Positions 1 through 58,404 of a stretch of 64,000 nucleotides of DNA are shown piece after piece. How positions within the stretch are numbered: position 1 is the first letter of the stretch; every line of letters begins with the position of its first letter. Position numbers and translations under genes: made by a program. The DNA comes from Somniosus microcephalus. Lineage: Eukaryota. The stretch is taken from positions 71,300,001 to 71,364,000 of the forward strand of contig CM126217.1 in assembly GCA_052327205.1 (NCBI GenBank), read 5' to 3'. The notes below the pieces were generated by a model, which worked only from the letters and a program-made list of their open reading frames with translations, had not been told where the DNA came from and made no database searches.

Positions 1-788
1 CTAAGTGCACATTTTCTTAACTTAACAACGAAGAATATTTATTTCTGATTTATTGTGTATAATTTTATACACATTGTATTTACTTACAGTAAGTTATGTG
101 TAGCAATCAGCATTGCTGATGGACACTTGTCATATTACATTGTTATACGTGTTTGGCAGAAAATTGAAGATTGTGTCTTTAAAACTTTAAATAAATATTT
201 TAATAAAACAGGCTCATTAATGAGTTCATTCTTTGTCAGTTATGGAGTGGAACTGTTTTCTGCAGAAAATGCTCTCTACGCAGCAAAATATGGCTTGTGA
301 AGCATTATGGTTTTTGTTGCAAGCTCAAAACTCATTCCTATGGAGAACAGTTTATTGTAATAATTTACAAATAATAGTAAATTATCACTGCAAAATATAA
401 ACTGGAATACAATTTTCTCTTAAAATTGGAAGGCACTATGATACTGAAATCCGGTTGAATTTAGAAATGATCCCATTTTTTGTATTTGCTAAGTTTAAAG
501 GCAAATATCCACTAAAACACCTAGGTTATGTCAAACACAGGTTAACAAGGTGAGAAAAGGGCTCACAACTGTCCCGTTAAACCTAGCCGATGAAGACACG
601 TATAAAGCGAATGGTTTCAACTGTTTTGAACTGACCCTTCATTTTCTTTAACGAATTAATTTTTTTTCGATGTAAACGTTCTCCATGTGATCGGAGTCTT
701 AAAAGAATGATCCCTTCCTGTATACATCATTTTTTTAAAAACCCAGAAGAGCCAGTTAATCAGAAACTGTAAAAGTACCAGGCAATTT

Positions 789-1550
789 GGGCCAGTAATT
801 CCTGTCCCAACGCGTGAGTACGGTCGGGGTACTCGCACGTCTGGCCGGAGGAAATGCCGGTTTTCAGCATGCACAGCGCATGCGGGGAAAACTGGCATTT
901 CCTGCCCTCTGAACGAAGGAGTTCAGAGGCAGAACGCGCGCGACTGCACAGGCAGCGCGTGCGCAGTAAAATTCCTTTTTTTTTCAAAGTTGCGCGCGTG
1001 TAAAGGCCTCCGGTCTTTACGCGTGGAAAAAGAAGACGTAAGTATTTAGTTTTTCAGGTAAGTGGGCTTTTAGTACAATGTAGAATTTTTTTTTCCACAG
1101 GTTTGTTATTTTTAAAGAATTTACAGGATGGTAAGTTTAGTTTTAGACCCTTTTTTTTTAATTTATTTTTTTCAAAAAATTGATTAATTGTTTATAACAT
1201 TTTTAAAAACTTATTTATAGTTATTATAATCAGTGGGATGTTTTTTAAAATTTTATTTAAAGTTAAAGTAGTATTTTGGCAGCCCATACTTTTCATGAGT
1301 TTGACAGCTCTTACTGTCAAACTCATGAATGAGTTTCCCCTCCCCTGATTGGCTGCACAGTGCTCACCTGGTCCCAGCCGGCACATCGCACTAACTACGC
1401 CGCTGGATCAGGTTAGCACAGCACGCCGACAGCTGAACCGGGCCTGTGACAGGAAATGCAAGCAGGCCCGGGCTTCAGATGTCGGCGCCCAGGGTGAGTG
1501 CACATCGGGGGCTTGCACACGCGGCAAGCCCCCGATCTAATTTCAGGGCC
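789..1550. mobile_element. GC/CpG-rich non-autonomous DNA transposon (Harbinger-type MITE), ends degenerate
   Basis: Right end aatttcagggcc and left end gggccagtaatt resemble the TIRs of other MITEs in the window; internal 16-bp hairpin at 1292-1329. Confidence 0.5.
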
Positions 1551-2129
1551 AATAAATAATGGAAACAGAGTTGAACTTCGGTTTTCAGGTCACACAACAC
1601 GCAGAAACCACATAGACCCCAATAGGATGAACTTATCTTCATTCATGTGTGCAGAAGGAAGACAGGACACTGAAAGCAGATGGGGAGGTTTATCATGACT
1701 GTTATAGAGTGCATTTAAAATATTTTAAAGGACATCATCTTCATTATGAAGTGTTGGGCAAACATTTTTTGTATTTAGTAATTCAAAAATCTGAATCGTG
1801 CAGGTACATATCCTTCCATTACTTGTGTAAAGTTAACCAAGATGATGCACAACTCTTCTGACTATTCTCTAAGCAAAAATGTTTGCCACTTTTTCATGAA
1901 GATGGTGTTCCTTTAAGACTACGTATCCGTTTTGTCTTACAATTTTTGAGTGGGTCAATTACTACAATAAAAAAGAAGTACTGGATTATTTTTCAGCTAT
2001 ATTAGTGTGGGAAGTTTTTAATAAATCCATATTTTTCAATAGGAAATTTTACGAGCAGACAAATCCAGATCTTGGCATCATGAGCAAACTGGGAGCTGTT
2101 AGGTTAATTTGGTCACGTTGCACATTGGT

Positions 2130-2500
2130 TATAGATGGTGAATGGGGAAATGCAGTGCTTGTGAAGTACACAGACTTGCAGAAAGCCTTTGACAAGGTAC
2201 CACACAGGAGACTATTGGAGAAGATTAAGTGGTATGGAAATAGGGGTAGGATAGGAAACTGGATTGAAAACTAGTTCAAAGGAAGTAAACAGAGAGTAGG
2301 AGTTAAGGGCAGTTTCTCAGAGTGATTGGAGGGAGGTAGTGAGATCCCATAGGGCTTTGTTCTGGGACTGCTTCTGTTCACTGTGTACATCAATGATTTG
2401 GATATAGGGATAGAGGGAGTGGTGTCCAAATTTTCAGACAATACTAAAATAGGAGGCATAGTAAATAATTCAGAGGACCAAAGGAAGCTGCAAGGAGATC
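2130..2500 (+). mobile_element. CR1/L3 LINE RT fragment
   Basis: DLQKAFDKVPHRRLL and YINDLD..SKFSDNTKIGG motifs, with stops. Confidence 0.9.
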
Positions 2501-2665
2501 AACCTCAGTTTAATATCTCATTTGAAAGACAGAAGCTCTGGAAATGTGATATTCACTCAGTACTGCACTAACGTGTCATCCTAGATTATTTGTACAAGTG
2601 TGGAGTGGGGCTTGTACCCGTGACTTTCTGATTCAGATGTTAGAGTGCTACCACCGAATTAGGCT
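2500..2665 (-). mobile_element. tRNA-head Deu-type SINE fragment
   Basis: Reverse complement matches the 5' part of the SINE at 55115-55550. Confidence 0.65.
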
Positions 2666-4047: not shown

Positions 4048-5465
4048 TGTAGGGGGTGGCGCGTGAGCCCAGTCAGTTATGCCTCTGACTGCCCGTGAGC
4101 AGTTCGAATCGCTCCCACGCCCCTGAGATTCTCGACACCGGACTTAGGTACAGGTAGCGATACAGAAAAGACTCGAGTAGACAGGTGGTTTGGGTGTAAG
4201 CAAGACTCAGGATTTTATTAAACAGGAAAAGCTAATACAGTCTTAAGAGAAGTTACCAGTATATAGAATTACAGGCAAATACAAATAACTATACTTATAC
4301 AGGGAATGGGGAACACACGGCACATCGAGGGAAAACAACGATCTTAACAATCCCCTTATCCTTATCCCACCCCCTATACCTAACTAGATTAAGCTATGAG
4401 GGGCCAGAATTTATGCTCACCAATCAAAAGGGTTTGTTGGACTCAAAACAGTGGTGGGGCTCGGGGTTCGCTCTTGGTGCTCTCTGGAGCCTGCCGTCAT
4501 CACGTGGTCTCCGGGTGCTGCAAGGGCGTTGTCCAGGTTCGAGTACCCCAAAATTAAAGTCTCTGTTTGGGTACTTTACCTTGCAGGGATGGATTCCTCT
4601 TCTTCGACCGACAGTTTGAGTTTGCATGAAGATAGTCGCAGGTTGGCTGAGGCTGAAGGCCCGATGATTCGAAGCCTACCCTCAGTTGGTCTCCTCAGTT
4701 GGTCTTCCTCAGTTGGTCTTCCCTCCTCCCCTCGTCGCGTCCCGCCTCGCCTGGCCTGAATTGTCCGTGTCCGCCCGATGCAGTGCCGGGGCGATTTCCA
4801 GATGGAGTGGCAAAAGGCACGGGCAAAGGCCAGGGGGTAAGCGCGGGATGGGGAAAGAGCGACAGCCACGAGGGCGAGGGGCAGAAGAGCCGAGCAGAGC
4901 AGAGAGCAAGATTGCTACCCGGGGCCTTCAATTATACTCTTTTCGAAAACCCTTATCTGCGTGCCAAATCAGGTTAGTTCTTTGCCTTAATCTTGGCGGG
5001 CTATTTTAAATAATGGTAGCAAGCTATACTAACTGTTTTTAGATGGCTGGTAATCGCATCTACCGGCCCGATAATTGACTTGTTTTGTTATGAATGTTCC
5101 TTGATGGGCCTGTCCAGCCTCAATGGCTTTCTTAATCTGTTGCTGATTATATATGTAAACTGCTTGATGGCCTTAACTATAGGCCTAACTGGATTTAGAT
5201 TTGTCTCCAATTCGATCGAATACATAATTCAAAGCCCTGTCTGGTTTCAAAATACAAAGTCTCTCTTCACAGAAACTGCAGCTTTGGTTTCGATTTTTCC
5301 ACAAGCTGCCTGCATTGCAGAGTCCAAGTTTTAAAATCTCACAGGCTTTCTGCCACGAGGCACGGACACCATCTTGGGTACCCTTTTTGATTTAAAATGC
5401 CCACGCAGGGTCCTGTTTATTAATAACAACCTTTGGGGAAATGTAGAAATTTTGCAAATTTTACA
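4048..5465 (-). repeat. 3' LTR of provirus (1418 bp)
   Basis: Direct repeat of 13227-15457 without the MITE. Minus-strand TATA-like box at ~4932-4938 and AATAAA at ~4214-4219. The PPT (cagggggg ag on minus) abuts it at 5466-5475. Confidence 0.95.
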
Positions 5466-5808
5466 CTCCCCCCTGTGATACTAAAACTTGCTTGAAGTAT
5501 CATACTTTTAAGGTGAGCAAAATTTTTCTGACCCTCCATAGTCAACCTTCCCCTGTAATTACCTATCTAATATACCCATGACACATGCACTTCCCATTCC
5601 GCGAAAATGTAGTGTACATCAGCATACAGAGAGTAAAATTACAGACTTTTACACACACATCCAAGCATGGAGGGGTCCAACACCACTGCACCACTTGGTA
5701 CACATATCTTTATTAAACCGCGTTGCAAAAAAAACCAAAAGAAAAACCTTTATTAAAAATAACAAACACAAAGAAATGATCCTTTAATCAAAATACAGGG
5801 AAAAAGAC

Positions 5809-7650
5809 TTAAACCGGCATATCTCCCTCCACCTTTACATAATGTTCCTTCCAAATCCTCTGGTTTCGGAATTCTGACCACCGACCTTTTCCCTTACACT
5901 GAATACAAACTAAATACAACACTATCCCTAACTGACAAACCACGAGAATGTGGGAAGCCAGTCTGATCCACGAAGGGACCTCTATGTTATTGAAAATGTT
6001 CCACCAGGGTGGAGTCACTATATTCAATATCTTAGTCCCTATCTCTACTGTTTTCTGTTCGAGAGTGTAAAAATGTTTCTGTGAAACTATAACGGCTTTG
6101 AGTATTTTAGTAAGGTGTTCAGGGAGAGGGGGAATTTCCTAGCCAAAGTGCGCTACGTACTTTTGCAAATTCGTAAAATTCTCCTTCACAGTGAGGTGAA
6201 CAGTGGAGGGTTCAGGAATGGGGACAATTCACTCCTGGGCCACTTGAACTTCTGCCTCGGGTTTAAAACAGAAACTGCTGTCACTAACCGGACACCAGCT
6301 ATGCTGTCCATACTGGTAGTGGGACGCGCCGGTTGTGACACAATATGTCCTACCCCCTATATATGCTACCTGCGGGGGAACATGGCCTTGTGTCATTGCC
6401 TCCATGGTGCAATTTATAGGCTTCGTGCCAGCAGCTCTGAACCCACACAGCGGTTTCGAATAGGCATTCAAGTGCTGGGGACACAGGATTATGTGTGCTC
6501 CCCGGCTCCGGCACCCTGAGAGGTCAATACCTGTCATAGCGTGCTCCCACTTTATGACGTAAGGTGGGACCGCTGTGAAACGAATGTGTGCACCCCCCTG
6601 AATGACTCCAATGTTCTCCACCCTGTATACCGGTGCGATCGAGCCGTCCTACACATGACTGGCATCCTAACTACTACTCCCATGATTGTGTGGTTGGACC
6701 GCCCACAATCCACAGGGACTGGGTAGGCTTCGGAGGCTACCGGAGTTGGCATGGGCTCAATGCATTCTCAAAAGGGTGGAGGGCTGCGAGGTGCTTGTTG
6801 CTAATCCAGGAGGGGACCAAACCCTGTTTTAAATCCTCCAGATTACTGCGGCCCTCGCCCAGTAACCACGCCCTGTATAACACGCACACCTCATTCTGCG
6901 CAGCCTAGTCAGAAGCATTTTTGTCCTCCCTTATGAGAGCATTTACCGTCTTTGCGTGCTTTTCCAACTCGGCTATGATCTCCTGTAAATGGACCGTCAT
7001 GGCCTGGTCCTCATGCAACTCCGAGCCCACTACCTTGTTCTCGTCCAGTAATATTTTCTTTAACTGTGTTTTTAAACCGTTTATCTGGGTCTGCAGCTCT
7101 ATGTCATCCAAGCTGTTGATGACAGAGGACCCAGTATTAAACGCAGTAAAAATATCATTCCATACACCCCTTCTTTGCCTCCCTGCATTACCCAAAAATT
7201 CTCGGTGTGTGGTGTACAGTTCGGTCTTGTCCACGTGGGCAAAATCGAACTCGTAAAACTTCTTGAACATGTCCTTTAATAGGGCCTGGTATAACTGCTC
7301 TGTTTCTTTGGGGCACCACTACGGTAAATGTACCTTGGTGAGATTTAAAATCACTGAGGCTACCGCGTAGTGTACCCCCTGGTACAGCATCTGAACGGTG
7401 GGGACTAATACCAACCCATTCCCTGGTCCCTTGGTGGCGGTGGGGCAACCTTCCCTGGATAACCTCGCCACCTGCGCCGTGGGCGGGGGCTTACGGGGGC
7501 GGGTTACCAGCTCAGTGGCATTGACTGGGATCGGGGAGAATGGGACTGCACACGCCTTCAGGCTGGTATCCCACCTCATCCCATCCCCTGCGTCTTGCCA
7601 CTGCCGGTGGAAAATAATGGATACGCCTGTGGGGCAGACCTTCTCTGACC
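5809..7650 (-). pseudogene. env: env, class I fusion glycoprotein similar to Mononegavirales F; 4 internal stops and 2 frameshifts
   Basis: GLVLVPTVQMLY..ILNL..P*WCPKETEQLYQALLKDMF (F2-like); furin site RQRR; fusion peptide GVWNDIFTAFNTG; heptad repeat; Cys-rich DLSGC..IILCP region; TM ASHILVVCQLGIVLYLVCI; tail ends 5809. The 5' boundary is approximate. Confidence 0.8.
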
Positions 7651-10600
7651 CCAACATATCCTCGGACCTTACCCCAACTGGCTGCTTTCCCCTTTCCGGT
7701 GTAAACAACTTACACTGGTTGATATGGAACCATTTTGTACGCCGGGGCATCTTCACGGCGTATACCATGGGGCTGGCTTTATCTACAATACTGTAGGGCC
7801 CCATGTATAATGGCTCCAAACTACCTACTCGGGCATAATTCCTCACCATAACCTGATCTCCTATTTCCCACTCATGGTGCTTTCTCGGTTCGAGCAGCAA
7901 TCGGTTACTCCGATGCTGCCTTCCCATGTTCCCAGCCGCCTGCTCATGGACCTGCTTCAGGTGCTCAAAGAGGTTTCGGGCAAGCCTGTCCCGGTTTACC
8001 TCCCTGAGCTGACCCTCCGTGAGCACCGGGGCTAGTACATGGGTGGGGGTCTGCATAACCCAGCCAGTCATTAGCTCGTACGGGGAATACCCCGTGCTTT
8101 TAGACTGGCTGGCCCGGATCCCCATCAAAACCAACGGTAGGACTTCGGCCCATTTACGGGGCGAGTCCGCCGTTTCCTTTCTTAACCTTTCTTTCAGGGT
8201 CCGATTCATGCGTTCTACAATCCCCGATGACTGGGGGTTGTGGGTTACGTGCCATTTCCCCTCAATGCTTAGCAGCATCAGGGTGTTCTGCATCACCTGT
8301 CCACTGAAGTGGGTCCCTTGGTCGGACTCCACAAACTGTGGTAGTCCCCACCTCGAGAACACTTCCCGGACTAGGATCCTGGCAGTACCCAGAGCTGTGG
8401 CAGTTCTGCAGGGAAAGGCTTCTACCCACTTGGTAAACACGTCCACCAGGACTAGGCAGTACTTATAGCCTCCCTGAGCAGTGGGCAGGGGCCCGATGTA
8501 GTCGACTTGTATCGACTGTCATGGTCCCTCTACCCTCTTGATGTGTCCCATAGGGGCCTTCCTTTTGTGGGTGTCAGGGTTGTTCGCAGCGCACACAAGA
8601 CAGCCTGCGCAGAACTCGCAGACATCGTCCCTGAGTCCCGGCCACCATCCCGCCTGTTCCAGCCGTTGCCAGGTGGTCTCAGGCCCAGGGTGTCCTGCTC
8701 CTGGACCCTCATGGGCCAGTTGAAGGAATTCCCTCTGGTGCTGCTGCGGCACAACCCACTGTTCCCCCCGGAACAGCATGCCCTCTTTAACGGAGACGGT
8801 CGCTGTGCCGTACGGACCTTCTACTCCTTTTCCCTCAGCTACAGCGCTGAGGACTGCTTTGAGGACGGGGTCTTGGGCTTGGACCGTCTTAAGGTCTGGG
8901 GCTAACGCTACCCCTACACTCCCTTGGGTCCCGTCCCTACCTCTGACCGCCGCCATGGGCCTGGACCCAAATGGGTCCCAGAAAATGCCTGCGCGGGCAC
9001 CCTCCTTGGCGAGCAAGTCAGCCTGCTGGTTGCCTTGGCCGCGGGGTTCTGTGGAGGAATGGGCTTTCACCTTGTGGATGAAAACCTCCCCTTCCTCCCC
9101 CACTGCTGCCAGGATCTTTTCCAGCAGGGGCTTTACTGTGAGGGGTCTCCCGTCAGCGGAGGTGTATCCGCGGCGGGACCAGATGGCCAGGTACTCCGTA
9201 CACGAATTGCACATAAACATGCTGTCTGAGCAAATTGTGTAGGGGGTGGGGAAGATTTCGGGGTGTGTAACAACGTACACCACCGCGGACAGTTCAGCCT
9301 GCTGGGCGCTCATGGTGCTGGGGAGCTTAATTGCCAGGGCAATGTTTGCCGCTGGGTCGTAAACTCCACACCCCGTGAGACGCTTGCCAGCAGATACCGT
9401 GCTGGAGCCGTCCACATAGATTTCGCGGCCTGTGGGATGTATCCCGGCCCATAAACCTATGTTTACTTCCCAAACCCCTTCAATGGAACACCGATGGGCT
9501 GTTCCAGGATATACCATGTTGGCTGCGAGCTTTGGCTCACAGAGACCCTTCACCTTCAGATCCATCTGTGAGAGGAGCAAGGTCCAGCGGGTAATGCGGG
9601 CACTGCTCACTGTCCCATCCTTGATCCTCCCGTCCAGAAGAATCTGGGTGGGTGTGTGATGGGTGAGGAGGGTGATGGGAGAGGTGCCTGTGAAGATCAA
9701 TGATCTTTTCACAGCCCAATGTGTGGCCAAAAGATGCCGCTCACAATTGGAATAGCTCCTTTCCACATCTGTGAGTATCCTGGAGGAGTAGACCACCGGC
9801 CGCAGCCGGCCGTGCCGCTCTTGGAGCAGCACAGCACTGAGGCTGTCTCCGCTGGCTGCTACCTCCAGGAAAAACTCTTTCCCCCCATCTATGGCCCCTA
9901 AAGCTGGCGCGGTCTGCAAGTCCTTCTTGAGCCTGACAAATGCTGCCTGGCAACCCTCATCCCAAAGCCACTCCACTCCCTTGTGTAGGAGTCGGAGCAG
10001 AGGGGCTGCGGTGGCTGCATAGTCCTCAATAAAGTTTCTACAGTACCCGGTCAGCCCCAGGAACGAACTCACACCCGTTACTGTGTTAGGGACTGGTAGT
10101 TCTTGTACTGCCTCCCTCCTAGCCTTATCTATGGCCCTTTCTCCAGCGCGCACGGTCAGACCGAGGAATTTCACCTCCTGCTGGCCGATCTGCGCTTTCC
10201 TGGGATTTACCTTGAAGCCCTTCTGTCCTAGCAGCTCCAGCAGTTCGGCCAATAGCGGGCCATGCTCCTCTTTCGAATCAGTGAACAGGAGCAGGTCATC
10301 TACATATTGAACCAACTGTCTGGGCTGGCTAAAATCCTTCAAACTGTCGGCCATGCACTGATGGAAAATGCTGGGGCTGTTGTGGAAGCCCTGTGGCAAA
10401 CAGTTCCACGTGTACTGTTGCCCTTTAAACGTAAAGGCAAACTTGTACTGATCCTCCCTCCTTAAAGGGATGGACCAAAACCCATTTGAAATATCCAGCA
10501 CCGTAAAAGTGGTTGCGGATGCGGGAATACTCCCAATGAGGTCGGCAACTGCTGCTACTGTGGGTGCGCAGGCTGGGATGTTGTTGCTATTGAGCACCCG

Positions 10601-11377
10601 ATAGTCCACCGTGGCCCTCCAGGAATTGTCCGGCTTTCTGACCGGCCATAACGGAGAAATCACGTGGGTAGCTATCGGTCTCAGAACTCCCTGCTGCACT
10701 AACGAGGACATGGCTGCTTCCATGTCCGGCTCTGCTTCCCTGGGGAAGTTATACTGTTTCTGTGGTCGGGCCATGGGGTCCCCGTCTACGCTGACCTCAA
10801 ACCCTGTGACCCTCCCGCAGTCGTGTTTGTGAGTGGCAAATGTGGCCAGGTGGGCCTGCACAAATGCCTGGAACTCTGGTGGGGTGTTGCTGACCATGAG
10901 CCCGAGGTTATAATCCTCTTTGGGCTTCATGGTGCAGAGGGTCCCCTTCCCTTCCTTTCCCGGGATTACTACGATCTCACCGTTCTTTACTGTACCTGCC
11001 CCCCAAAGGCAGTGATTCCTCAAATCCACTAGGATCCCGTGACCTACGATAAAGTCGGCCCCCAGGACCCCTCTTCCACCCTCCACGTCCCATTTCATCA
11101 GGACACACGTCCACTTAGAGCAGAGCGGTCCTATCCGAATGGTGAGCGGGATGGAAAACGAGCCGGCCTGTTCCCTACCCGTGTACCCCGATAGACTGTA
11201 TGGGACCCCTCTGGAGAGAGGTGAGGCGATGGGGTTAGCTGAGAAGACCACGGTGCATGGTGCCCCCGTGTCTAACAGATAGGTCCTCGTCACCTTCTCC
11301 ACCTCCATCTCCAAAAGGGGTCTTTTCCACTCATCATATCGGAGCGAACACAGATAAACAGGCTGCGCTGGCTCTAG
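7650..11377 (-). pseudogene. pol: pol: protease, RT, tether RNase H, RNase H, integrase; one internal stop (8519-8521)
   Basis: LLDTGA; LPQGF..YVDD; degenerate FLEVAAS RNase H; intact YVDGS..AQQAEL..SDS..GNQQAD RNase H; HHCC (H..H..CLVC); VDYIGP..SDQG..VERMN; GPY motif. Confidence 0.93.
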
Positions 11378-13152: not shown

Positions 13153-13205
13153 CAAGGTTTGCTCATCTGAACCATTGTCTACTGTATCGCAACCCTGTTG
13201 CCGGG

Positions 13206-13223: not shown

Positions 13224-13226
13224 TTA

Positions 13227-45100: not shown

Positions 45101-48100
45101 CGCCATCCGCCGCCGGGTTTCGGAACAATGTGGAGAGGCGAAGACCAGGGACTATTCAACCGGCGAATAATCCCTAGCCGCTCCATCGTGTCGAACTCCG
45201 CTTTCGCAGGCGCGAGCTTGCCAGGTTCGAGGTGCCGGGCCCCTGCGTAGACCGGGGAGCCAGTAGTGGTGATGTGATGTTCGACACCATGTTTCGTGGC
45301 CGTGGAAGAGAAAGTGGGTCTGGTCAGGTCTGGGAACTCTCCGAGGAGGCGAGTGAAGTCATCCGGAGGTGGGGACATGCAGGAGACAGTGCGCGCCACG
45401 GTGTTACCGCGGTCGCACGGGATGGAGTGAAAAGTGGCCGCATTGATCAACCGGCGGTGCCGTACATCCACCAGGAGGCTGTTGGTGCACAAAAAATCCG
45501 CCCGAGGATGGCTTGAGAGACTTTGGCCGTGATGAAATCCCAGTAAAACCGCTGGCCGCCGAAGCACACCTGGACCCGCCGGCTTCTGAAGGTTCGAATG
45601 GCCCCGCCATTAGCCGCCTGGAGGGAGGGGCCGTGCCCCCCAACTTGTAGATCAAGATTGGACGCGGGTAGGATGCTACACTGCGCCCCGGTGTCGCAAA
45701 GGAAACGTCGACCAGATAGGGAATCGTTGATGAAGAGGAGTTTTCCCGAATTACCGATTGCCATCGCAGCCGCGGGGCGCTCGTTATAACCGGTCCTCCT
45801 TCGACAGGGTGGCTGCTGGGTTTTTTTGAGCGAAAAGCTGCAGGGAGTGCGGCAGCATCTTGCTTTCGCGCCAAAACGGGCATGGTAGATGCACAACCCC
45901 GCAGGTTGAGGGACTGGAGCAGCGTCTGTGGGGGATGGGCGCCTCGTGGCAGCGCAGCACTGCTGTGTCACCGCGAAGATCTTGTCTGCATCGGCAGCCA
46001 GCTCTGCGCAGTCGGTGACTTCCGACCTGGCTAGGGCAGCTTGAACTTGCTCCGGAAGCTGGCTGAGGAATAGCTCCCTGAAGAGGAAGCATTCCGGTTT
46101 GGAGCCCAGGAGCGTGAGCATTTGGCTCATGAGCTCGGATGGCTTGGAGTCCCCGAGGCCGGGCAGATTGAGCAGCCGGCGGGCGCACGCCGACTTCATG
46201 AGCCCGAAGACCTGTAACAACCGCGCCTTTATCGTATCATACTTGCGGTCCTCTGGTGGATTACCAAGCAGGCTGACGATCTGCGAGGCTGTGGCGCTGT
46301 CGAGGGCGGAGACCACGTGATAATAACGGGTCTGATCCGCAACGATGTTCCTGATGGCGAACTGGGCTTCAGCCTGGATGAACCACGCGGCTGGCTGTTG
46401 CTCCCAGAACTGTGGTAGCTTTAAAGCAAAGGCGTTCGATTCCATGTTCGGTAACTTTTGCGCAAACCGTTCGCAAAAGTCGGGGTCACCAATGTAGGAA
46501 TGTCTAGTTCCTATCCAATAGGTCCACTCAGGCAATCAAATCAACGAGGTTTAATGAAAAGTAACAGAGTTTAACAGATAACTACAGGAGAACATCGAAT
46601 ATAGGTCTAGTCAGTTCGGAGGCTCCACGAGGACTGCTAGGGCGGTCCCATGGCTGACGTCATGACGTCATCACATTTTTCCCACCGGTGGGGGATCACG
46701 TGATGAACGGCGTGACGTCATCGCGTTTGCCCGCGCTATTAAAGTGATCGCGCTCTGTACATGTAAACAGTGAAAACAAAGGTACAGACTCAGGCTGCAG
46801 CCAACATATTATTAAAGGGAATTATATACAATTGATTGGAGTCCCTTAGTGGCTCCGCCACAAGAGTCCATTATAAAAGATGTAATAGCAGAGCACTTGG
46901 AAAACAGTGACAGGATCGGACAAAGTCAACATGGATTTACAAAAGGTAAATCATGCTTGACTAATCTACTGGAATTTTTTGAGGATGTAACTGGTAGAAT
47001 AGATAAGGGAGAACCAGTGGATGTGGTGTATTTGGACTTTCAAAAGGCCCCGCATAAGAGATTAGCGTGTAAAGTTCAGGCACATGGGATTGGGGGCAAG
47101 ATACTGACTTGGATAGAGAACTGGTTGGCAGACAGGAAGCAAAGAGTTGGAATAAACGGGTCTTTTTCCGAGTGGCAGGCAGTGACTAGTGGGGTACCGC
47201 AAGGATCGGTCCTAGGACCCCAGCTATTCACAATATATATTAATGATCTAGATGAGGGAACTAGATGTAATATCTCCAAGTTTGCAGATGACACAAAGCT
47301 GGGTGGGCGTGTATGCTGTGAGGAGGATGCCGAGAAACTCCAGTATGATTTGGACAGGTTGGTGATTGGGCAGATGCATGGCAGATGCAGTATAATGTGG
47401 ATAAATGCGAGGTTATCCACTTTGGTGGCAAAAACAGGAAGGCAGATTATTATCTGAACGGCAATAGATTGGGAGAAGGGGAAGTGCAACGAGACCTGGG
47501 TGTTTTTGTGCACCAGTCGCTGAAGGTAAGCATGCAGGTGCAGCAGGTGGTTAAGAAGGCAAATGGTATGTTGGCCTTCGTAGCGAGAGGGTTCGAGTAC
47601 AGGAACAAGGATTTCTTGCTGCAGTTGTACAGGGCCTTGGTGAGACCACACCTTGAGTATTGTGTGCAGTTTTGGTCACCTTATCTGAGGAAGGATGTTC
47701 TTGCCATGGAGGGAGTGCAGCGAAGATTCACCAGACTGATACCTGGGATGGCAGGAATGACGTTTCAGGAGAGATTGGATCAATTGGGCTTATACTCGCT
47801 GGAGTTTAGAAGAATGAGAGGGGATCTCATTGAAACTTATAAAATTCTAACAGGACTAGACAAACTAGATGCAGGAAGGATGTTCCTGATGGCTGGGGAG
47901 TCCAGAATCAGGGGTCACAGTCTAAGGATAAGGGGTAAGCCATTTAGGACAGAGATGAGGAGGAATTTCTTCACCCAGAGAGTGGTGAACCTGTGGAATT
48001 CTCTACCACAGAAGGCAGTTGAGGCCAATTCATTAAATATATTCAAGAAGGAGTTAGATATATTTCTTAAGGCTAAAGGGATATGGGGAGAAAGCAGGGA

Positions 48101-48203
48101 CAGGGTACTGAGTTTGGATGATCAGCCATGATCTAATTGAATGGCGGAGTAGACTCGAGGGGCCGAATGGCCTACTCCTGCTCCTATCTTCTATGTTTCT
48201 ATG
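42150..48203 (+). mobile_element. CR1 LINE split by a Gypsy insertion (42150-42277, 46867-48203)
   Basis: The reading frame GKMLE|SIIKD continues across the AGAG TSD; ORFs 46849-47457 and 47385-48131. Confidence 0.93.
42278..46862 (-). mobile_element. Full-length Ty3/Gypsy LTR retrotransposon, CsRn1-clade-like
   Basis: LTRs 42278-42652 and 46493-46862; TSD AGAG; PBS TGGTGACCCCGAC (tRNA-Trp, 46479-46491); gag from ATG 46445 with LPQFW and CIYHARFGAKARCCRTPC (CHCC); DTGA, YLDD, RNase H, IN with GPF; several stops and frameshifts. Confidence 0.93.
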
Positions 48204-49021
48204 ATCCCCCCCACCTCGGAACCCTACATAAGCTGCATTATAAACCTGGTGCTGCATTCTACCTGAAGAATGTTTCCCCAAAGTCCACAGAACCTAAGTC
48301 TTAGGGCTCACAACAGCGTCAGTTCTCTTGCCCCTCTCCACACCCACCTGAAAATAATGTGCAAGTAACTGAACAGCAAATAAACCGCAGCACCAGGCAG
48401 ATTCCGGGTCACTCCCGGACTGATATCGATCACAATCTACAGATTACTCGACAGCTTTTTTTATATATATATCGAGAACCAGCTCTTATCGCATACAGGA
48501 AGTGATAGGGATCACACATCGGAAAGAGTATTGTTTGTGTACTACCGGGTCTGCGTGGAATACAAGCCTTTCATGTGTGTAAGATAAAGTACAATAAGAT
48601 CAAATCAGATTGGTGAAAGGAGAGAGAACCTGGGCATTGGTATGAACCCGTTACAACACGCCTGCGCCTTTAAAACTGGCTGTTGTTCTATCAGCGGTGA
48701 CTTTGCGAGGGCTCCACCACAGAGTGAAAGTTAACACTGCAGCATCTTTCCCCGGTGAAAGGCCGATATATATTTTAAAATATATGATAAAAGCTGGTTC
48801 CAAGTGTGTAGGTAGTAGTAGCAACTGGTGATCTGGTTCTCAGTTGCGTAAACTCATTTAAATTGATAGCTAACTTATTCGAAAACTGTGCAAGAGGCCC
48901 AGAGGCTGGCTTGCATTGTAAAACACGACGGTCATTACGGAATTACCGATGGAGTTAACTGTGAAGCAATATCGATCACATCATTAAAGGTGTGATTTAC
49001 ATCTGAAACAGTGTTACTTAC

Positions 49022-52000
49022 TGTAATGTCCGTGTGTAATTGAGACACGGACTGCAGAAGTTGGTTATAACAGGTGTTTACTGAATGGAGACAAAACTGG
49101 AACTATTATACAAAGTTACTACACAGGCTTATATACAGGGGTGGTCACTACTGGTACTGCAGTATACAGGGGCTGCAGAATATAGTTCCTTCTTCAAGGT
49201 ACATACACTACAATTCCACCCCTTTTAGCTAAACAGTACATAACATTCGATTAATAATTAAATAACATATTTACAATTACAGTTGCTATATACATTAGCT
49301 GAAGTTAATCAATTATAAATTCAGTCTTTGAGGAGGCTTCCTGATTCTGTCCGGATAACGCCTGTTTCGGGTATCAGGTTCTTCTGGCAAAGTTGATTCG
49401 GGATCAACGTCATTGTTTGGTTCGTCTGCTTCCAATATCACCGATTTCTGAGGTAGATGCAATTGGTACTTCGGTTTCATCACCAGGTGTATAGGATCGT
49501 GGTGTAGATTTGACGTTTTCCAGTGACTCTAGAATCTGGTCAGCATGGCGTCTTACAATGCTCTCTCCAACGTCCATGGTATACATTAGAGGTCCTTGCC
49601 GTGTGCAGATCGTTCCTGGCTGCCATTTCTCTGTGCAGTAGTCCCAGGCCAAAACTGGTTGACCTATCTTGAAACTCCTGGTTGGCCTTTCATTCATATT
49701 CTGAAACTGCCTGTTCTCCACATCTCTTCTGATGTTTGGCTTAACCAAATCCAAGCGGCATCTTAGTCTTCGATTGAAGAACATCATGGCTGGAGTTTGG
49801 TTGGTAACCGCATGTGTCGCTTTCCGGTAGGCAAACAAGAAGTTATCCACCTTGTGTTGTAGGGGTATGTCTTAATTACACATTGCCTTGATAGCCTTCT
49901 TGAATGTTTGAACGAACCTCTCAGCCAATCCATTGATGGGTGGATGATATGGGGCGGATGTGTAATGCTTAACCCAATTGTTCTTTAAGAACCTCCGGAA
50001 CTCTTCAGACACAAACTGTGGTCCATTGTCGGAGCAAATCTGTTCAGGCAGCCCATTTCTGGCAAATATGGTTCGTAAGACTGTGATAGTTTTTTCTGTG
50101 GTAGTTGAGGACATTTTTATTACCTCTGGCCACTTTGAATGTGCATCCACCGCAATTAAAAACATCGAGTCCATAAATGGACCAGCAAAATCAATGTGCA
50201 CCCTTTGCCATGGAGATGAGGGCCACTCCCATGGATGTAGAGGGGCTTGTGGTGGGGCGTTTTGGACCTTCTGGCATCCTGTACAGCTCTTGGTCATCTC
50301 TTCGATTTCTCTATCGATTCCCGGCCACCACACAAACGCTCTGGCTAAGTTTTTCATTTTTACCCCTCCCAGATGACCCTCATGAAGCTCATTGAGCACT
50401 CTATCCTTCAATTTGGGTGGAATTACTACTCTGGATCCACACATCACGGTACCTCGGCACACTGACAGCTGTTCTCTTCTCGGCGAGAATGCTGGCAACA
50501 GTGGTTCACCATGTGCTGGCCATCCCTTCACCGTTAAATCATAGACCCTGGAGAGTGCCGGGTCATTTCGTGTTTCCTTTTCTATGTTTGCATTCGTCAC
50601 AGGTAAACATTCGACTATGGTCGAGTGGAATATCTCCACAGGATCCACTGCAGGTGCTTCTTCCACCGTCGGCAACGGTAGGCGCGACAATCCATCAGCA
50701 TTCCCATGCTGTTTAGTTCCTTTGTACTCGATGTCATATTGGTGTGCCCCTAGGAAAAGGGACCACCTCTGTAGCCGTTGTGCTGTCATTATCGGGACGC
50801 CCTTCTTAGGGTTGAAAATGGAGACAAGAGGTTGATGATCAGTTAGTAGAGTAAATTTCTGTCCGTGCAGGTAGTGATTGAACTTCTTCACCCCCCACAC
50901 CAGGCTGAGGGCCTCTCTGTCAATCTGGGCATAGTTACGCTCGGCTGCAGTTAACGAGCGTGACGCAAAAGCTATCGGCCTCTCTGAACCATCAAGGGAT
51001 TTATGTGACAGTACCGCTCCAGCGCCGTAGGGAGACGCATCACACACCAGTCTTATCGGCAGTGATGGGTTGTAGTGAGCCAATACTTCTCTTGAAGTGA
51101 TCAGGCCTTTACACTTCTGAAAGGCCCGCTTACATTCATCGCTCCATTTCCATGCTACTCCAGTTTGTAGCAGGGTGTTCAGTGGGTGCAGAATTGTGGA
51201 AAAATTCAGCAAAAACTTATGGTAGTAATTCACCAATCCGAGGAATGACCTCAGTTGCGACACATTTTCAGGCGCTGGAGCCTTAACTACCGCTTTAATT
51301 TTGTCAGGGGACTTATGTAACCCCTCTTCATCAATCACGTGGCCACAATACGATATTTGTTTCTTTAAAAACTCGCACTTGGGGCGATTGGCTCGTAGCC
51401 CATGTTCTCTTAGTCTAGTGAGCACCTGCTCTAGGTTGGCAAGGTGTTCACTGTCATTTTCACCTGTCACTAGGATGTCGTCCAAGTAACACTGAGTCCC
51501 CGGAATCCCTAGCAGGACTTGTTCCATCGCTCTTTGCCATATAGCCGGAGCTGATGCTACTCCGAATACCAGTCGATTATACTGGTAAAGACCTTTGTGA
51601 GTGTTTATCGTGAGATATTTCCTAGAGGATTCTTCAACCTCCATCTGCAAATATGCTTGCGCTAGGTCAATTTTTGTAAAACGTTTCCCTCCAGATAGTG
51701 AGGCGAAAATATCTTCTATCCTCGGAAGAGGATACTATACTGTGTGAAGGACTGGGTTCACAGTCACCTTGAAGTCCCCACAGATGCGAACCTTCCTTGG
51801 CTCCTCAGACTTATTGTTTAACGTTTTCTTCATGACAGGAACGATGGGTGTCGCCCACTTGCTCCAGTCTACCTTAGATAACACGCCTGCATTCTCCAGA
51901 TTCTCCAGCTCTGCCTCGACGGCTGGGCGAATTGCATACGGTACCGGTCTTGCTTTGAAAAACTTGGGAATTGCATCCTCTTCTATTTTTATCGAGGCGG

Positions 52001-54200
52001 TTACGCCTTTAAGAGTTCCCAGTCCTTGTTGAAATACCTCTTTGGCGTTAGCTAAGATTTTTGACAATCATCCAGGTGTGACGTCGTCATCCTTTTTACC
52101 AGCCACAGTCAGTGCCTGAATGGAGTGCCAGTCTAAACTTATCTTTCTGATCCATTCACGTCCCAATAATGGTGGTCCACCATCTTGCAGTATGTACAGA
52201 TACAATTTCTGTATTTCCTTGCTGTTGTATTTGACAGGCACCCTTATTTTCCCTCTGGGGTATACTTTCTGCCCCGTATATATCTTCAAGACAATGGATG
52301 TGTCTTTCAAGGGTATGTGTGAGAATAGCCGCTCGTAGTCTCGTCGATTCATGACGGTCAGGGCTGATCCTGTATCCAATTCCATTTTGACTTGGGACCC
52401 TGCTATCGTGAGGGTGACCCAAATGGTTCGGTGATCCTCTTTTGCGATTACGTTGTGTAGTTTGAGACAGCTTAGTCTCTTGTTCCCGGATTCACTATCG
52501 CTCTTCTGGTCTTCGGAACTACTGTCCGTCATCTTTTGTACTTTCCTGTACTTTTCCTTAGTAGCCTTTTTGTTGTCGTTAGTCTTCTTCCCGGACCTGC
52601 AAACTCGTGCAATGTGTCCCATTTTTCCGCATTGCCTGCATGTTTTGTCCTTGGACCAGCAGTCCTTCTGGTCATGGGTTGTTCTGCCGCAGCGATAACA
52701 TTTTTCAAATCCCCGTGTCATTTCATGGGTGCCGTATTCCTGTGGCTTTTGCTGTATTTCTGCAGCTCCCCTTGCTGCTGCTTCGTACGATACTGTCATG
52801 CTGAAAGCCTTATCTAGCGTCAGCTCTTTCTCTGAGAGTAACCTCTTCTGGGTTCCTTCACTCAGGAGTCCACAGACAAATTTGTCCCGTAGGGTATCTA
52901 CCAGTCCTGCTCCGAACTGGCAGTGCTTTGATAGCTTGCGTAGTTCCGTAAGGTAATCAGCATTGCTCTCATCTTTATGCTGATTTCTCTTGTGGAATTT
53001 AAATCTTTCTGCTATCAGCAGCGGTGTAGGATTTAGGTGTTCCTGTAGGATATCAACAATTTCGTTAAAACTCTTCTCCATCGGTTTGACTGGAGTGATC
53101 AAATTCCGCAATAGACCGTACGTTCTTGCGCCCATTAAGTTTAGTAGTACCGATGCCTTTTTCTCATCGGCTACTTCATTTGCCTTGCAATATACTTCGA
53201 CTCTTTCCACATACGTGGTCCAGTCTTCTATTGCATTATCGAAGGCAGTGATATTGCCAGTCTTCGGCATCTTGGAGATCTAAGATGGCGCCTCCCGCGC
53301 TTTGCCTTCTTCCCCGATTGAACAAAATGGCGCCTCCCGCGCTTTGCCTTCTTCCCCGCTGGATTAAGATGGCGCCTCCCGCGCTTTCTGCCTTTTCCGC
53401 TGCTGCCAGCGCTGTTGGTGGCGTTTTTATGCCTTGATGGCAACGCCCTATGGTCTTCGCGCGCTTCCCCCCGCGCTGCTGCCAACGCCGCTCTCCACGG
53501 TTCCCGTGGCAAACTGCAGCTCCTCGCGGCTTTCTGTGCTTCTAATTTCTTTTTCTTTTATTACTGTTCCCGTCGTCAGAGCAGACCCTGTGGGACACTT
53601 CCCTCCCTCTTCTCGGGTCTGTTCGCTGCCCGGTTTCGTAGCACCGGCCGCGCCCTGTGTGCTCCACCCTCTCTCTCTCCTCTTCCCGACAACGCTGCTC
53701 GGCCCCGTTGAAAAGCCACCCGATCGAGCTCTAGCCCGCCGCAGCCCAGGAAGGATCAGTGTACTACCTGCCACCAGCCCGATTAGCTGGAACACCATAG
53801 ACTGGAGAACCAAGCCCAGCTCTCGACAGCCTCTCCTGCAAACCTTCGAATTCGATGAATCAGAGGGCGGTTGCCCACGGTCGACGCCCGTTTCTTCTGT
53901 TTGTTTGTTTTTTCTTTTTGGATTTCTTCCTTCTGGCTTCGACCTCTAATAACTTCGCTTCAGGGATGGCTCCCCGTGAGGTGGTGCAGAACTGTAGGTA
54001 AGTTCGGATCTGTTCGTCGCCAATGTAATGTCCGTGTGTAATTGAGACACGGACTGCAGAAGTTGGTTATAACAGGTGTTTACTGAATGGAGACAAAACT
54101 GGAACTACTATACAAAGTTACTACACAGGCTTATATACAGGGTACTGCAGTATACAGGGGCTGCAGAATATAGTTCCTTCTTCAAGGTACATACACTACA
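49022..54200 (-). mobile_element. Full-length Ty3/Gypsy LTR retrotransposon, Mag-clade-like
   Basis: LTRs 49022-49212 and 54024-54200; 5-bp TSD CTTAC; PBS TGGCGACGA; gag from 53270 with two CCHC knuckles; DTGS, YLDD, DAS RNase H, IN; a few stops and a frameshift. Confidence 0.93.
53281..53398. repeat. Three ~42-bp tandem repeats in the Gypsy 5' leader
   Basis: aa(g/a)atggcgcctcccgcgcttt unit x3. Confidence 0.85.
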
Positions 54201-54234
54201 CTTACGGTCCCAGGTAGCCTGTACTGGTCTTTAT

Positions 54235-55112
54235 AAGAACATAAGAATTAGGAGCAGGAGCAGGCCATACGGCCCCTCGAGCTTGCTTCGCCAGTCAATG
54301 ATCTTCGACCTCAACTTCACTTTCCCGCCAAAACCCCATATTGCTAGATTCCCCTAGAGTCCAAAATCTATCTATCTCAGCCTTTAATGCACTCAACACA
54401 GCCTTTTGGATTAAGTTAAAGAATTCCAAAGATTTATAACCCTCTGAGTGAAGAAATTCTTCCTCATCGCAGTCTTAAATGGCTGACCCCTTATCCTGAG
54501 ACTATGCCCCCTAGTTCTAGACTCTCCAACCAGGGGAAACAACCTCCCAGCGTTCCCCTCAGAATCTTATATATTTCAATGAGATCACCGCTCATTCTTC
54601 TAAACTCCAGAGAGTATAGGCCCAATCTACTCAATCTCTCCTCATAGGACAACCCTCTCATCCCAGGAATCAATCTAGTGAACCTTCATTGCACCGCCTC
54701 CGAGGCAAGTATATCCTTCCTCAGATAAGGAGACCAAAACTGTGCACCGTACTCCAGGTGTGGTCTCACCAAGGCCCTGTACAATTGTAGCAAGACTTCC
54801 TTACTCTTATACTCCAACCCCCTTGCAATAAAGGCCAACATGCCATTTGCCTTCCTAATTGCTTGCTGTACCTGAAAGCTAACTCTCTGTTTCCTGTACG
54901 AGGACACCTAAATCTCTCTGAACACCAACATTTAATAGTTTCTCACCATTTAAAAATTACTCTGTTTTTCTATTCTTCCTGCCAAAGTGAATAACCTCAC
55001 ATTTCCCCACATTATACTCCATCTGCCACCTTATTGCCCACTCATTTAACCTGTCTATATCCTTTTTCAGGCTCTTTGTCTCCTACTCACAGCTTACTTT
55101 CCCACCTAGCTT
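54235..55112 (-). mobile_element. CR1 LINE 3' part
   Basis: [15 protein letters not shown]; CR1 tail. Confidence 0.9.
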
Positions 55113-55114
55113 TC

Positions 55115-55552
55115 TGCTCAGTGGGTAGCACTCTCGTCAGAAGGTCGTGGGTTCAAAGTCCCACTCCAGAGACTTGAGCACAAAAAACTAGGCTGACACT
55201 CCAGTGCAGTGCTGAGGGAGTGCTGCACTGTCGGAGGTGCCGTCTTTCAGATGAAATGTTAAACTGAGGCTCTGTCTGTCCCCTTTGGTGGACATGAAAG
55301 ATCCCATGGCACTATTTCGAAGAATTATCCCATGTCCTGGCCAATATTTATCCCTCAACCAACATCACTGGTCACTGATGATCTGGTAATGATCACATTG
55401 CTGTTTGTGGGAACTTGCTGTGTGCAATTTGGCTGCCACGTTTCCTACATTACAACAGTGACTACACTTTAAAAAAAAGTACTTCAATGGCTGTATAGTA
55501 CTTTGGGACGTCCGGTGGTCGTGAAAGGTGCTATATAAATGCAAGTCTTTCT
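55115..55552 (+). mobile_element. tRNA-derived Deu-domain SINE (SacSINE1-like) with L2-like tail
   Basis: A/B-box-like gctcagtgggtag / ggttcaaagtcc; gaggtgccgtctttcagatga and aaagatcccatggcact core; tail gctatataaatgcaagt. Confidence 0.75.
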
Positions 55553-55756
55553 TTTTATCTTCAGCAATATGCATTGATATGTAATCATGCCCTTTTATTA
55601 ATATTTATTTTAGTTAGTTACATCATTACAAATAAACAGGCAGCTTTAACTTTATGGAAAAAAGAAAATACTGCAGATGCTGGAAATCTGAAATAAAAAC
55701 AGAAAATGCTGGAGATACTCAGCAGGTCAGGCAGCATCTGTGAAGAGAGAAACAGA

Positions 55757-55791
55757 GTTAACGTTTCAGGTCGATAACCTTTCGTCAGAAC
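55757..55791 (-). ncRNA. Minimal type I hammerhead ribozyme (Penelope-associated)
   Basis: gtt-CTGACGA-aaggttatcgacct-GAAACGTT-aac. Confidence 0.7.
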
Positions 55792-57516
55792 TGGAAAAAA
55801 GCAGGAAATGGAACAGATTTTTAAGCAAGTGTAGGAGCTGGGAAAGGGGGGAGGGGATAAAGAACAAAAGGGAAGGTCTGTGATAGGATAGAAGGCAGGA
55901 GAGGTTAAGAGACATTAAGAGATATTCAACGCAAAAGGAGATGGTAATGGGACAGGTTAAGAAACAAAGGATGGCTCTAGATGAAGTGTAAATTGCGCTG
56001 GCAGAATGAAAGACAGCTGCCATGTGAGAGAGAAGAAAAGAAAACACAAACAAAAAAATAGGGTGGAAAAAAATATATATTGTAGGGGCCGAGGTTATGA
56101 TCTGAAATTGTTGAACTCTATGTTGAGTCCAGAAGGCTGTAAAGTGCCTAGTCGAAAGATGAGGTGCTGTTCCTCGAGCTTACGTTGAGCTTCAGTGGAA
56201 CAATGCAAGAGGCCGAGGACGGTGAGGTCTGAGTGGGAATGGAGCGGTGAATTAGTGACAGGCAACCGGAAGCTCGGGGTCCCCCTTACGGACTGAACAG
56301 AATAGGTTATTGACAAACATTCACTACAAGCCCACTGACTCCCACAGCTACCTGGACTACACTTCCTCCCACCCGCCTCCTGTAAGGACTCTATTCCATT
56401 CTCCCAGTTTCTCCGTCTCCGCTGCATCTGCTCTGACGATGCCACCTTCCATACCAGCGCTTCCGACATGTCTTCCTTTTTCCTCAACCAAGGATTCCCC
56501 TCTACTGTGGTTGACATGGCCCTTGACCCTGTCCGTTATATCTCCCGCACTTCTGCCCTCACCCCTGCCCCTCCCTCCCGGAGCCACGATAGGGTTCCCC
56601 TTGTCCTCACCTTTCACTCCACCAGCCTCCACATTCAACAGATCATCCTGCGCCATTTCTGCCACCTCTAGCGTGATCCCACCACCAAACACATCTTCCC
56701 CTCACCTCCCCTTTCAGCATTCCGAAGGGACCGCTCCCTCTGCGACACCCTGGTCCACTCCTCTATCACCCCCGACACCCCTTCCCCTTCGCCCGGCACC
56801 TTCCCGTGCAAGTGCAGGAGATGCAACACATACCCTTTTACCTCCCCCCTTCCCACTGCCCAGGGCCCCAAACACCCCTTCCAGGTGAAACAGCGATTTA
56901 CTTGTACTTCTTGCAATTTAGTATACTGTATTCGCTGCTCACGATGCGGTCTCCTCTACATTTGGGAGACCAAATGCAGATTGGGTGACCGCTTTGCGGA
57001 ACACCTCCATTCAGTCCATAAGGGGGACCCGAGCTCCCGGTGGCCTGTCACTAATTCACCGCTTCACTCCCACTCTGACCTCACCGTCCTCGGCCTCTTG
57101 CATTGTTCCACTGAAGCTCAGCGTAAGCGCGAGGAACAGCACCTCATCTTTCGATTAGGCACTTTACAGCCTTCTGGACTCAACATAGAGTTCAACAATT
57201 TCAGATCATAACCTCGGCCCCTATCATATATATATTTTTTTCCACCCTTTTTTTTGTTTGTGTTTTTTTTTCTTCTCTTCAACATGGCAGCTGTCTTTCA
57301 TTCTGCCAGCGCAATTTACACTTCATCTAGAGCCATCTTTTGTTTCTTAACCTGTCCCATTACCATCTCCTTTTGCGTTGAATACCTCTTAATGTCTCTT
57401 AACCTCTACTGCCTTCTATCCTATCACAGACCTTCCCTTTTGTTCTTTCATCCCCTCCCCCCTTCCCCAGCTCCTACACTTGCTTAAAAATCTGTTCCAG
57501 TTCCTGCATTTTTCCA

Positions 57517-57551
57517 GTTCTGACGAAAGGTCATCGACCTGAAACGTTAAC
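57517..57551 (+). ncRNA. Minimal type I hammerhead ribozyme (Penelope-associated)
   Basis: gtt-CTGACGA-a-aggtc-atc-gacct-GAAACGTT-aac: intact core, 5-bp stem II, palindromic stem III. Confidence 0.75.
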
Positions 57552-58404
57552 TTTGTTTCTCTCGTCACAGATGCTGCCTGACCTGCTGAGTATCTCCAGC
57601 ATTTTCTGTTTTTATTTTTAACTTTTATGAAATGTCACCGAGAGTATATTTTTTAAATTTTAGACTCAGTCACATCCATGTAAAACACTGGGGTTTACAA
57701 AGCAATCGGGGAACTTGAAATCCTCATTGACTGGATACACATGTATGCACAGTGAACAGGAAGGGGATGAACAGTGCGCCCCAGCGAAATAAATCCATTG
57801 GACAAAAGGCCACACATCTGAATTAGATGGCATTTCTTCCAATTGTTGCAATGGTCATTGTTTCATTGGAATAATTATTTAACCAAGACACAAATTGCCG
57901 CTGCTCAGCTCTCTGAACTGTTCTCTTTTCCCAAAGTATTATGAGCTAACAGTGTGTGCACAACGTGTTTATTTAAAATCATTTACGCAGAACCTATTTG
58001 ATTTATTTTTCCACATAAATGATCTTAATTGTAATAATATGTTCTTAAACGTAAACTTGCCAGAAATGTATGAATAAATACATACAACAGCATCCATTGC
58101 TATATAGCTAAAAATAAGCAACAGTGCTCAATTTGTTTATTGTTTTAAATACGAGAAAATAACCTAAACCCAATACACTAAGGGTGTAATACCGTAATGT
58201 AGAATATATCCATTTTTACTAAGGCATTAATCAAAAGATCTGCAACTCCTTGTAAGAAAAATGAAACATAAATAAAGGGGGCAATTATACTGTCACTGTT
58301 GTATTAAAGCAATGCCAAGTTGACAGTAAAAATCAAGAGTCAGGTCCTGATCTGACTTTGGAATACAGAGGTGTGAGATTCTCTTGGGAAGACCACCTTA
58401 TACT

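Follow-up and report, generated by a model that had tools for sequence, protein, structure and literature searches.

A decayed cytokine gene in the IL22-IFNG interval of Somniosus microcephalus, likely the shark orthologue of IL-26

The window analysed here is a stretch of 64,000 nucleotides from the shark Somniosus microcephalus (G000:C16:71,300,001-71,364,000, within a 6.4-Gb genome); positions are given in window coordinates, and x denotes the same scale extended past both window ends. The window harbours one dead gene of the IL-10 cytokine family, at 41,258-57,755, which is likely the shark orthologue of IL-26, whereas three further remnants proposed in the same window are likely chance pieces. 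A first-pass annotation had read the stretch as a hidden tandem cluster of up to four IL-10-family remnants. One dead gene was found, and remnants 1 to 3 lie at null level. The last member, considered strongly supported in that annotation, is confirmed as a broken IL-10-family gene: an ordered exon chain built with the IL-26 profile reaches 60.2, and no null chain exceeds 28.4.

Matches were sought with a purpose-written protein-to-DNA aligner, tolerant of frameshifts and stops, which was applied to non-repeat DNA; null levels were taken from the reverse strand and from dinucleotide shuffles. The first-pass annotation gave ranges without exon coordinates; exon-like segments were tested within each range, and each range was also scanned blind. 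Reference proteins were gathered with a profile composed of six shark IL-22 sequences together with exon pieces of IL-10, of the IL-20-like genes and of exon 5 from the window. This profile drew 144 representatives, and a 145-row tree made by a quick method shows IL-22, IL-10, IL-19/20/24 and two IL-26 groups. Ten proteins were checked by name: five are IL-26 or IL-26-like outright, two are so through a second name or a cluster member, and three are called IL-10-like or hypothetical.

Structure of the broken gene

Of the five coding exons with phase-0 introns that characterize the IL-10 family, exons 1, 3 and 5 are supported in order on the plus strand, exon 2 weakly and exon 4 not at all; the exon 1 donor is in phase 0. 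Exon 1 (41,258-41,431) extends from an ATG to a phase-0 gtgagt donor and specifies a signal-peptide-like start, the helix-A Cys and a ...SVP end in a single open frame of 174 nt, without stop or shift. On the IL-26 exon-1 profile its mature part reaches 22.8 bits, more than any of 100 shuffles (p 0.01 within 2.6 kb), and the exon is picked by the IL-26 profile only, the other five profiles peaking at 11.6-17.3 bits elsewhere in the interval. A likely exon 2 remnant follows at 41,781-41,830, supported only by its position and by a 9.7-bit score as step 2 of the IL-26 chain computed without exon 5. It carries a TAG at 41,823, the expected acceptor AG is missing and the donor GT at 41,831 is out of frame.

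The exon 3 remnant (48,228-48,360), which occurs at one place in the genome, retains the FYLKNV helix-C motif and the terminal Cys, has GC instead of GT at the donor and is interrupted by three frame breaks (48,255-56, 48,287-90 and 48,354-57). Exon-3 profiles of four families all peak at 48,234-48,332 (p 0.01-0.11). Exon 3 of spotted gar IL-26 (XP_069048074.1) matches the remnant at p 0.017-0.050 (300 shuffles); with X placed at the three breaks, the alignment with the gar protein runs from LxFY to the terminal Cys and is followed by the GCAAGT donor. A Cys-ending 150-nt segment at 48,865-49,013, with an LTR (long terminal repeat) element in its donor, was considered as exon 3 and has no profile support. 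The possible exon 4 region (55,614-57,643, plus strand) is split by a 2-kb insertion and its identity as an exon is unsupported, gar exon 4 giving p 0.33-0.37.

Exon 5 (GVYKAIGELEILIDWI, 57,678-57,755) specifies helix F and contains the signature KAxxExxxxxxW/Y. An in-frame TAA stands at 57,681 and there is no AG before the first codon. The exon matches Pfam IL10 positions 144-167 at E 0.0095, under the curated cut-off, and each of the nine PDB entries it matches belongs to IL-10, viral IL-10 or IL-20 (E 0.075-1.4). In runs X2 and X3, short-read contigs cover 57,620-58,400 without interruption, differ by a single substitution well downstream of the exon and reproduce the letters of exon 5 including the lesions, which therefore do not stem from an assembly error; X2 and X3 are near-identical and represent one sample, possibly the source DNA, so that they exclude an assembly error and not a private allele. 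Run X4 (organism C) covered 137 nt only, and these are identical. Downstream, a putative tail resembling a 3' untranslated region (57,788-58,276, plus strand) holds four ATTTA motifs and AATAAA at 57,788, 58,073 and 58,271.

The TAA at 57,681, the TAG at 41,823, the three breaks in exon 3 and the lost splice sites therefore place the gene among pseudogenes. As exon 5 is without an acceptor and an in-frame stop lies ahead of helix F, the cytokine can no longer be made. The exon order originally read for this member holds for exons 1, 3 and 5 and weakly for exon 2, and is unsupported for exon 4 and for the 150-nt Cys segment. Each exon after exon 1 carries lesions, exon 1 itself being intact.

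Assignment to IL-26

Both position and similarity point to IL-26. The pseudogene occupies the IL-26 slot, between IL22 and IFNG, on the same strand and near MDM1; the gene order is MDM1 - IL22 - pseudogene - IFNG, all on the plus strand. With MDM1 and IL22 before it and IFNG after it, the window is therefore the IL22-IFNG interval, and passages of PMC8863823, PMC4929537 and PMC5033493 put the IL26 of bony vertebrates in this interval. The class II cytokine synteny anticipated by the first-pass annotation is in place.

Exon 5 scores 45.1 bits with the IL-26 profile, 40.6 with IL-10, 35.7 with IL-20 and 23.9 with IL-22, each above all 100 shuffles. Among 149 IL-10-family proteins, none scores higher on exon 5 than gar IL-26 (41.5 bits, where the reverse strand reaches at most 27.0), and the best on exon 1 are two members of the IL-26 clade (25.4 and 21.9 bits). 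When gar IL-26 was compared with the whole genome, pseudogene exon 5 was the only match among nine candidates (E 0.14). Removal of exon 5 leaves a chain at p 0.02 with exons 1, 2 and 3 in order; without exon 5 and the signal, the pseudogene scores 29.6 bits with IL-26 against 17.9 with IL-10, a difference subject to the choice of frames.

In the tree the pseudogene is sister to 11 bony-vertebrate IL-26 proteins with support 89/84, and a tree of exons 1 and 5, for which no choice of frame is needed, returns the same placement at 89/71. An orthologue from a cartilaginous fish would be expected to branch there. IL-10 and two IL-20-like genes are present elsewhere in this genome, on contig C18, so the pseudogene is none of these. 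Intact annotated relatives were sought with little yield: none of 15 candidates at E<=10 for exon 1, no candidate for exon 5 and no usable match in the protein atlas, all weak negatives. The 144 representatives include shark-type IL-10, IL-20 and IL-22 and none near the pseudogene within the IL-26 groups, which shows no absence because the IL-26 proteins lie near the E-value limit.

The three other proposed remnants

Remnant 1 (269-2,910), remnant 2 (16,303-21,400) and remnant 3 (27,900-29,300), all on the plus strand, are rejected: none rises above shuffled background in profile comparisons, the outcome that the first-pass annotation had itself set against them. Their 20 segments have no match to the Pfam IL10, IL22 or IFN-gamma models, in a segment scan so insensitive that exon 5 of the intact IL22 was missed as well. 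Five-exon chains with six family profiles and 100 shuffles give best p values of 0.059, 0.059 and 0.040 for remnants 1, 2 and 3, respectively. Across the 18 region-by-family tests p ranges from 0.04 to 0.98 (the lowest being 0.040, 0.040, 0.059 and 0.059), and the best chains consist of scattered short matches. Eleven candidate segments reach at best 17.7-22.1 bits against the 149 proteins, the reverse strand having a median of 19.8 and a maximum of 27.0. The 174 single exon tests returned three matches at p 0.01 off the expected exons of the real gene, two of them nonsensical; the exon-2 match at 16,660-16,701 in remnant 2 stands at p 0.01 among these tests. Two other gap scans produced one nominal chain each (p 0.032; 30 shuffles, 12 tests), with exons distributed over 6-8 kb.

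Several of the pieces are recognizable as repeats. In remnant 1, whose remainder is at null level, 1,708-1,916 is a decayed palindromic dispersed element with TTAAAGG ends, resembling a miniature inverted-repeat transposable element and presumably of Kolobok type, with copies on C9 (64% over 232 nt) and C6. In remnant 2, the segment 16,733-16,892 belongs to a dispersed repeat, GTAAGT donor included, and recurs on C3 (67% over 165 nt), and 20,850-21,500 is single-copy but scores at null level. The 'helix-F exon' of remnant 3 (28,807-29,019) is an old high-copy dispersed repeat, 68-92% identical to 39 other places among 40 scored, and 27,915-27,980 shows a weak 72% match to a site 194 kb on, which does not recur at E<=0.001 in a larger set. 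Position 269 falls just past the AATAAA motifs (190, 202) that follow the stop of the intact IL22. Three specific identities suggested by eye were tried and discarded: an IL-26-like gene for remnant 1 (p 0.059, with the supposed exon 2 lying in the palindromic repeat), a copy of IL-26L for remnant 2 (chain p 0.39) and a copy of IFN-gamma for remnant 3 (chain p 0.62).

Exon-like, splice-flanked segments on the plus strand, which had been taken as the signal of the cluster, are equally common on the minus strand and in shuffles: 7,749 bp of gap DNA contain 12 short and 15 long exon-sized AG...GT segments on the plus strand, 12 and 14 on the minus strand and 9.9 and 11.7 in shuffles. AT-rich and old repeat DNA that looks exon-like by chance likely accounts for remnants 1 to 3.

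Alternative explanations

A number of observations weigh against the conclusions above. The margin of IL-26 over IL-10 on exon 5 is just 4.5 bits; exon 1 alone reaches 24.0 bits, the whole-window reverse-strand maximum being 24.5; exons 2 and 4 each fall short of significance by themselves; and a fully intact exon 1 is a little odd in an old pseudogene. Pseudogene exon 5 was itself one row of the profile that gathered the reference proteins, and a 58-bit read-through score of exon 3 and the first tree lean to IL-26 because the exon 3 frames were chosen with gar IL-26 in view. Approximately unbiased (AU) tests do not reject a grouping with IL-10 (p 0.152), IL-20 (0.278) or IL-22 (0.254); as they reject no alternative, orthology rests on position and best match, and the tree is agreeing and not decisive. 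The dead gene might accordingly be a separate IL-10-family paralogue, either a duplicate of IL-10 type or a lineage that bony vertebrates have lost, located in the IL26 slot by chance. Such an origin would fit the long pseudogene branch (1.09-1.46), the finding that the nearest row by path length in the exons 1 and 5 tree is the genome's own IL-10, and the helix F common to IL-10 and IL-26. It appears improbable, however, since exons 1 and 3 are closer to IL-26 than to IL-10 proteins, with the caveat of frame choice, and since position and strand are those of IL26 whereas IL-10 is on a different contig.

Orthology to IL-26 is thus preferred for the last member. For the others, at least one of remnants 1 to 3 may be a real and much older class II cytokine pseudogene, decayed past the reach of the profiles. 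The power of the search is limited: under simulated decay, cross-family genes are found in 10-20 of 20 cases at 10% change, in 5-10 of 20 at 20% and in 0-1 of 20 at 30%, and simulated IL-26L- or IFNG-type genes are hardly seen by the IL-26 and IL-10 profiles. Because the test fails between 20% and 30% change, very old remnants are unsupported rather than excluded. A few nominal matches also favour them, namely the remnant 3 chains at p 0.04, the segment 16,660-16,701 and a KKEVLDYF read by eye in 1,945-2,101. They are nonetheless unlikely: none passes the 18 chain tests, some of them run with profiles of IFNG and IL-26L from this genome, three key 'exons' belong to dispersed repeats, AG...GT segments occur at chance frequency and there is no DNA-level paralogy to IL22, IFNG or IL-26L. 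It is far less probable still that the locus is partly alive, with exon 1 transcribed and spliced elsewhere to yield a short secreted peptide or a regulatory RNA. Exon 1 keeps its ATG, donor and undisturbed frame, and it is intact in a contig of run X2 with two substitutions and no insertion or deletion over 627 nt; on the other hand, no TATA-like box is present within 258 nt upstream, there is no annotated exon 1 relative (a weak point) and exons 2, 3 and 5 each bear several lesions. RNA runs X5 and X6, of which 24% and 31% were read, show zero depth at exon 1 and no reads at the exon-5 stretch; as no unique stretch reveals the organism in these runs, this carries no weight on expression.

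Neighbouring genes and the IL-26L-type cytokine

The decay does not extend to the entire cluster: one gene is dead, and IL22, IFNG and an IL-26L-type gene near the window are intact. Exons of MDM1 occupy C16:71,249,341-71,262,952 on the plus strand, and the gene ends 37 kb before the window. IL22, first flagged by a match to the IL22 model, has five exons with GT-AG, phase-0 introns at x -2,662 to -56 (C16:71,297,338-71,299,944). Its stop lies 56 bp ahead of the window start and its 3' end occupies 1-230 (plus strand), with three ATTTA motifs and AATAAA at 190 and 202. IL22 exon 3 is 74-86% identical to seven shark or ray proteins, five of them named IL-22 or IL-22-like, which agrees with the shark-like genome recognized in the first-pass annotation. 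IFNG has four exons and a basic C-terminal tail at x 118,372-119,309 (C16:71,418,372-71,419,309), starting 54 kb past the window, and its exon 3 matches Pfam IFN-gamma at E 0.06. Among the flanking genes proposed for checking, MDM1 and IFNG are thus present, and a scan for long open reading frames (ORFs), carried 360 kb beyond the window to x 424,000, did not reveal DYRK2. For elephant shark, the MDM1-IFNG link is not made in the passages on this locus in PMC5033493 and is made in those of PMC5332411. The database models P0001, P0044, P0076 and P0136 are, on sequence inspection, mis-joined versions of the locus in which IL-22 has been run together with IL-26, with MDM1 or with exons derived from repeats.

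IL-10 (exons 2-5 checked) and the two IL-20-like genes lie on C18 at 26.60-26.73 Mb, with intact splice sites in the exons checked. The IL-20-like genes are arranged in tandem at C18:26,701,701-26,729,220, ~90 kb from IL-10 and on the opposite strand. Genome-wide Pfam searches proved insensitive: the IL10 model missed both IL-20-like genes and pseudogene exon 5, and the IFN-gamma model found nothing although an intact IFNG is present. Exon-3 and last-exon profiles run over 122.6 kb of unique DNA across 264 kb detect only IL22, the pseudogene, IFNG and IL-26L above the reverse-strand level.

The last of these lies at x 153,481-166,511 (C16:71,453,481-71,466,511), 34 kb downstream of IFNG, and is an intact class II cytokine gene of five exons. 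By eye it resembles the elephant-shark 'IL-26L' printed in the part of PMC4690019 that describes it, where the name is given tentatively. Being intact and downstream of IFNG, the gene is separate from the pseudogene. It forms a very long branch outside IL-26, its best identity to any family row is 19%, and the nearest atlas matches of its exon 3 are IL10- and IFN-gamma-family clusters (0.90 and 0.79). According to passages of the reviews PMC5332411 and PMC4929537, IL-26 occurs in bony fish and tetrapods, and the elephant-shark locus contains IL-22 and IFNG. Full-text searches of the open literature returned no IL-26 gene or pseudogene of a shark or ray beyond elephant-shark IL-26L.

The balance tips somewhat towards a jawed-vertebrate ancestor with IL22, IL26, IFNG and IL-26L in this locus. 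This shark lineage would have retained IL-26L after losing true IL-26, and the elephant-shark 'IL-26L' would then not be IL-26 but an ancient cytokine in its own right, located downstream of IFNG, which bony vertebrates may have lost or in which it may have been missed. If so, the pseudogene is a fossil that tells IL-26 and IL-26L apart, the origin of IL-26 moves back to the ancestor of all jawed vertebrates, one more independent loss is added for a repeatedly lost cytokine, and IL-26L becomes a different cytokine that deserves study of its own. The significance is that of evolutionary bookkeeping at a known locus, with no new mechanism, and of modest interest for cytokine evolution.

Insertions and the course of the loss

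Self-comparison classes 78% of the pseudogene span and about half of the 264-kb span around the window as repeat, and the long ORFs of the window are retroelement genes. Intron 2 contains an LTR retrotransposon (42,278-46,862, minus strand) whose LTRs differ at 11 of 369 sites, followed by a fragment of a long interspersed nuclear element (LINE; 46,860-48,206, plus strand), which we take to be of CR1 type and whose 3' end lies 22 nt before exon 3. A second LTR retrotransposon (49,022-54,203, minus strand), with LTRs differing at 2 of 180 sites, resides in the intron after exon 3. The 2-kb insertion in the exon 4 region, presumably Penelope-like, is bounded by a duplicated target of ~15 nt at 55,646 and 57,618. 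The two LTR elements are young and therefore do not date the loss of the gene; the number of insertions and deletions suggests that the loss is much older than either.

Two further retroelements were observed on the minus strand of the window. Just past the pseudogene, 58,452-60,543 is a non-LTR retrotransposon with a 605-residue reverse transcriptase frame ending in a C2H2 finger. A retrovirus-like LTR element at 4,048-14,422 has 1.2-kb LTRs with 51 differences in 1,182 sites and comprises a gag zinc knuckle, a reverse transcriptase with two RNase H domains behind it, an integrase and a disrupted env-like region, the latter without a Pfam match.

IL-26 has cationic antimicrobial activity. The ancestral gene probably encoded a secreted six-helix cytokine of ~175 residues, which would have signalled like IL-26 through IL-20R1/IL-10R2, the receptors being those named in a paper title. 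A first disabling lesion would have ended selection, whatever the order of the lesions, and insertions, deletions, stops and splice-site losses would then have accumulated while LINE, LTR and other elements filled the introns. Inactivation would have taken place in situ, between intact IL22 and IFNG.

Comparison with known systems

The closest counterpart is bony-vertebrate IL-26, with the spotted gar protein nearest. The two share the slot between IL22 and IFNG, the ...SVP end of exon 1 after the helix-A Cys, LxFY in exon 3 and KAIGELExxIDWI in exon 5, and eight of the ten columns invariant in 11 IL-26 proteins are readable in the pseudogene (the start M, L-FY, K-A, E, W and the exon-3 Cys, the last subject to frame choice). 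The shark copy differs in being a pseudogene of a cartilaginous fish, with introns that insertions have swollen to 16.5 kb and with an unrecognizable exon 4. In mammals, as stated in the relevant passage of PMC3894449, which cites Shakhsi-Niaei 2013, IL-26 has been lost repeatedly, with pseudogenes in several lineages. There too the gene was lost in place while IL22 and IFNG were kept intact; the shark loss, in contrast, is independent and the shark copy far more decayed.

Elephant-shark IL-26L is likewise an IL-10-type five-exon gene of the IFNG locus in a cartilaginous fish, but its protein, as described in that part of PMC4690019, is without the C-terminal IL-10 signature that the pseudogene possesses. 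Finally, the genome's own IL-10 and IL-20-like genes have the helix-F motif and the phase-0 exon layout in common with the pseudogene, whereas they are situated on C18, have intact splice sites in the exons checked and score lower against it.

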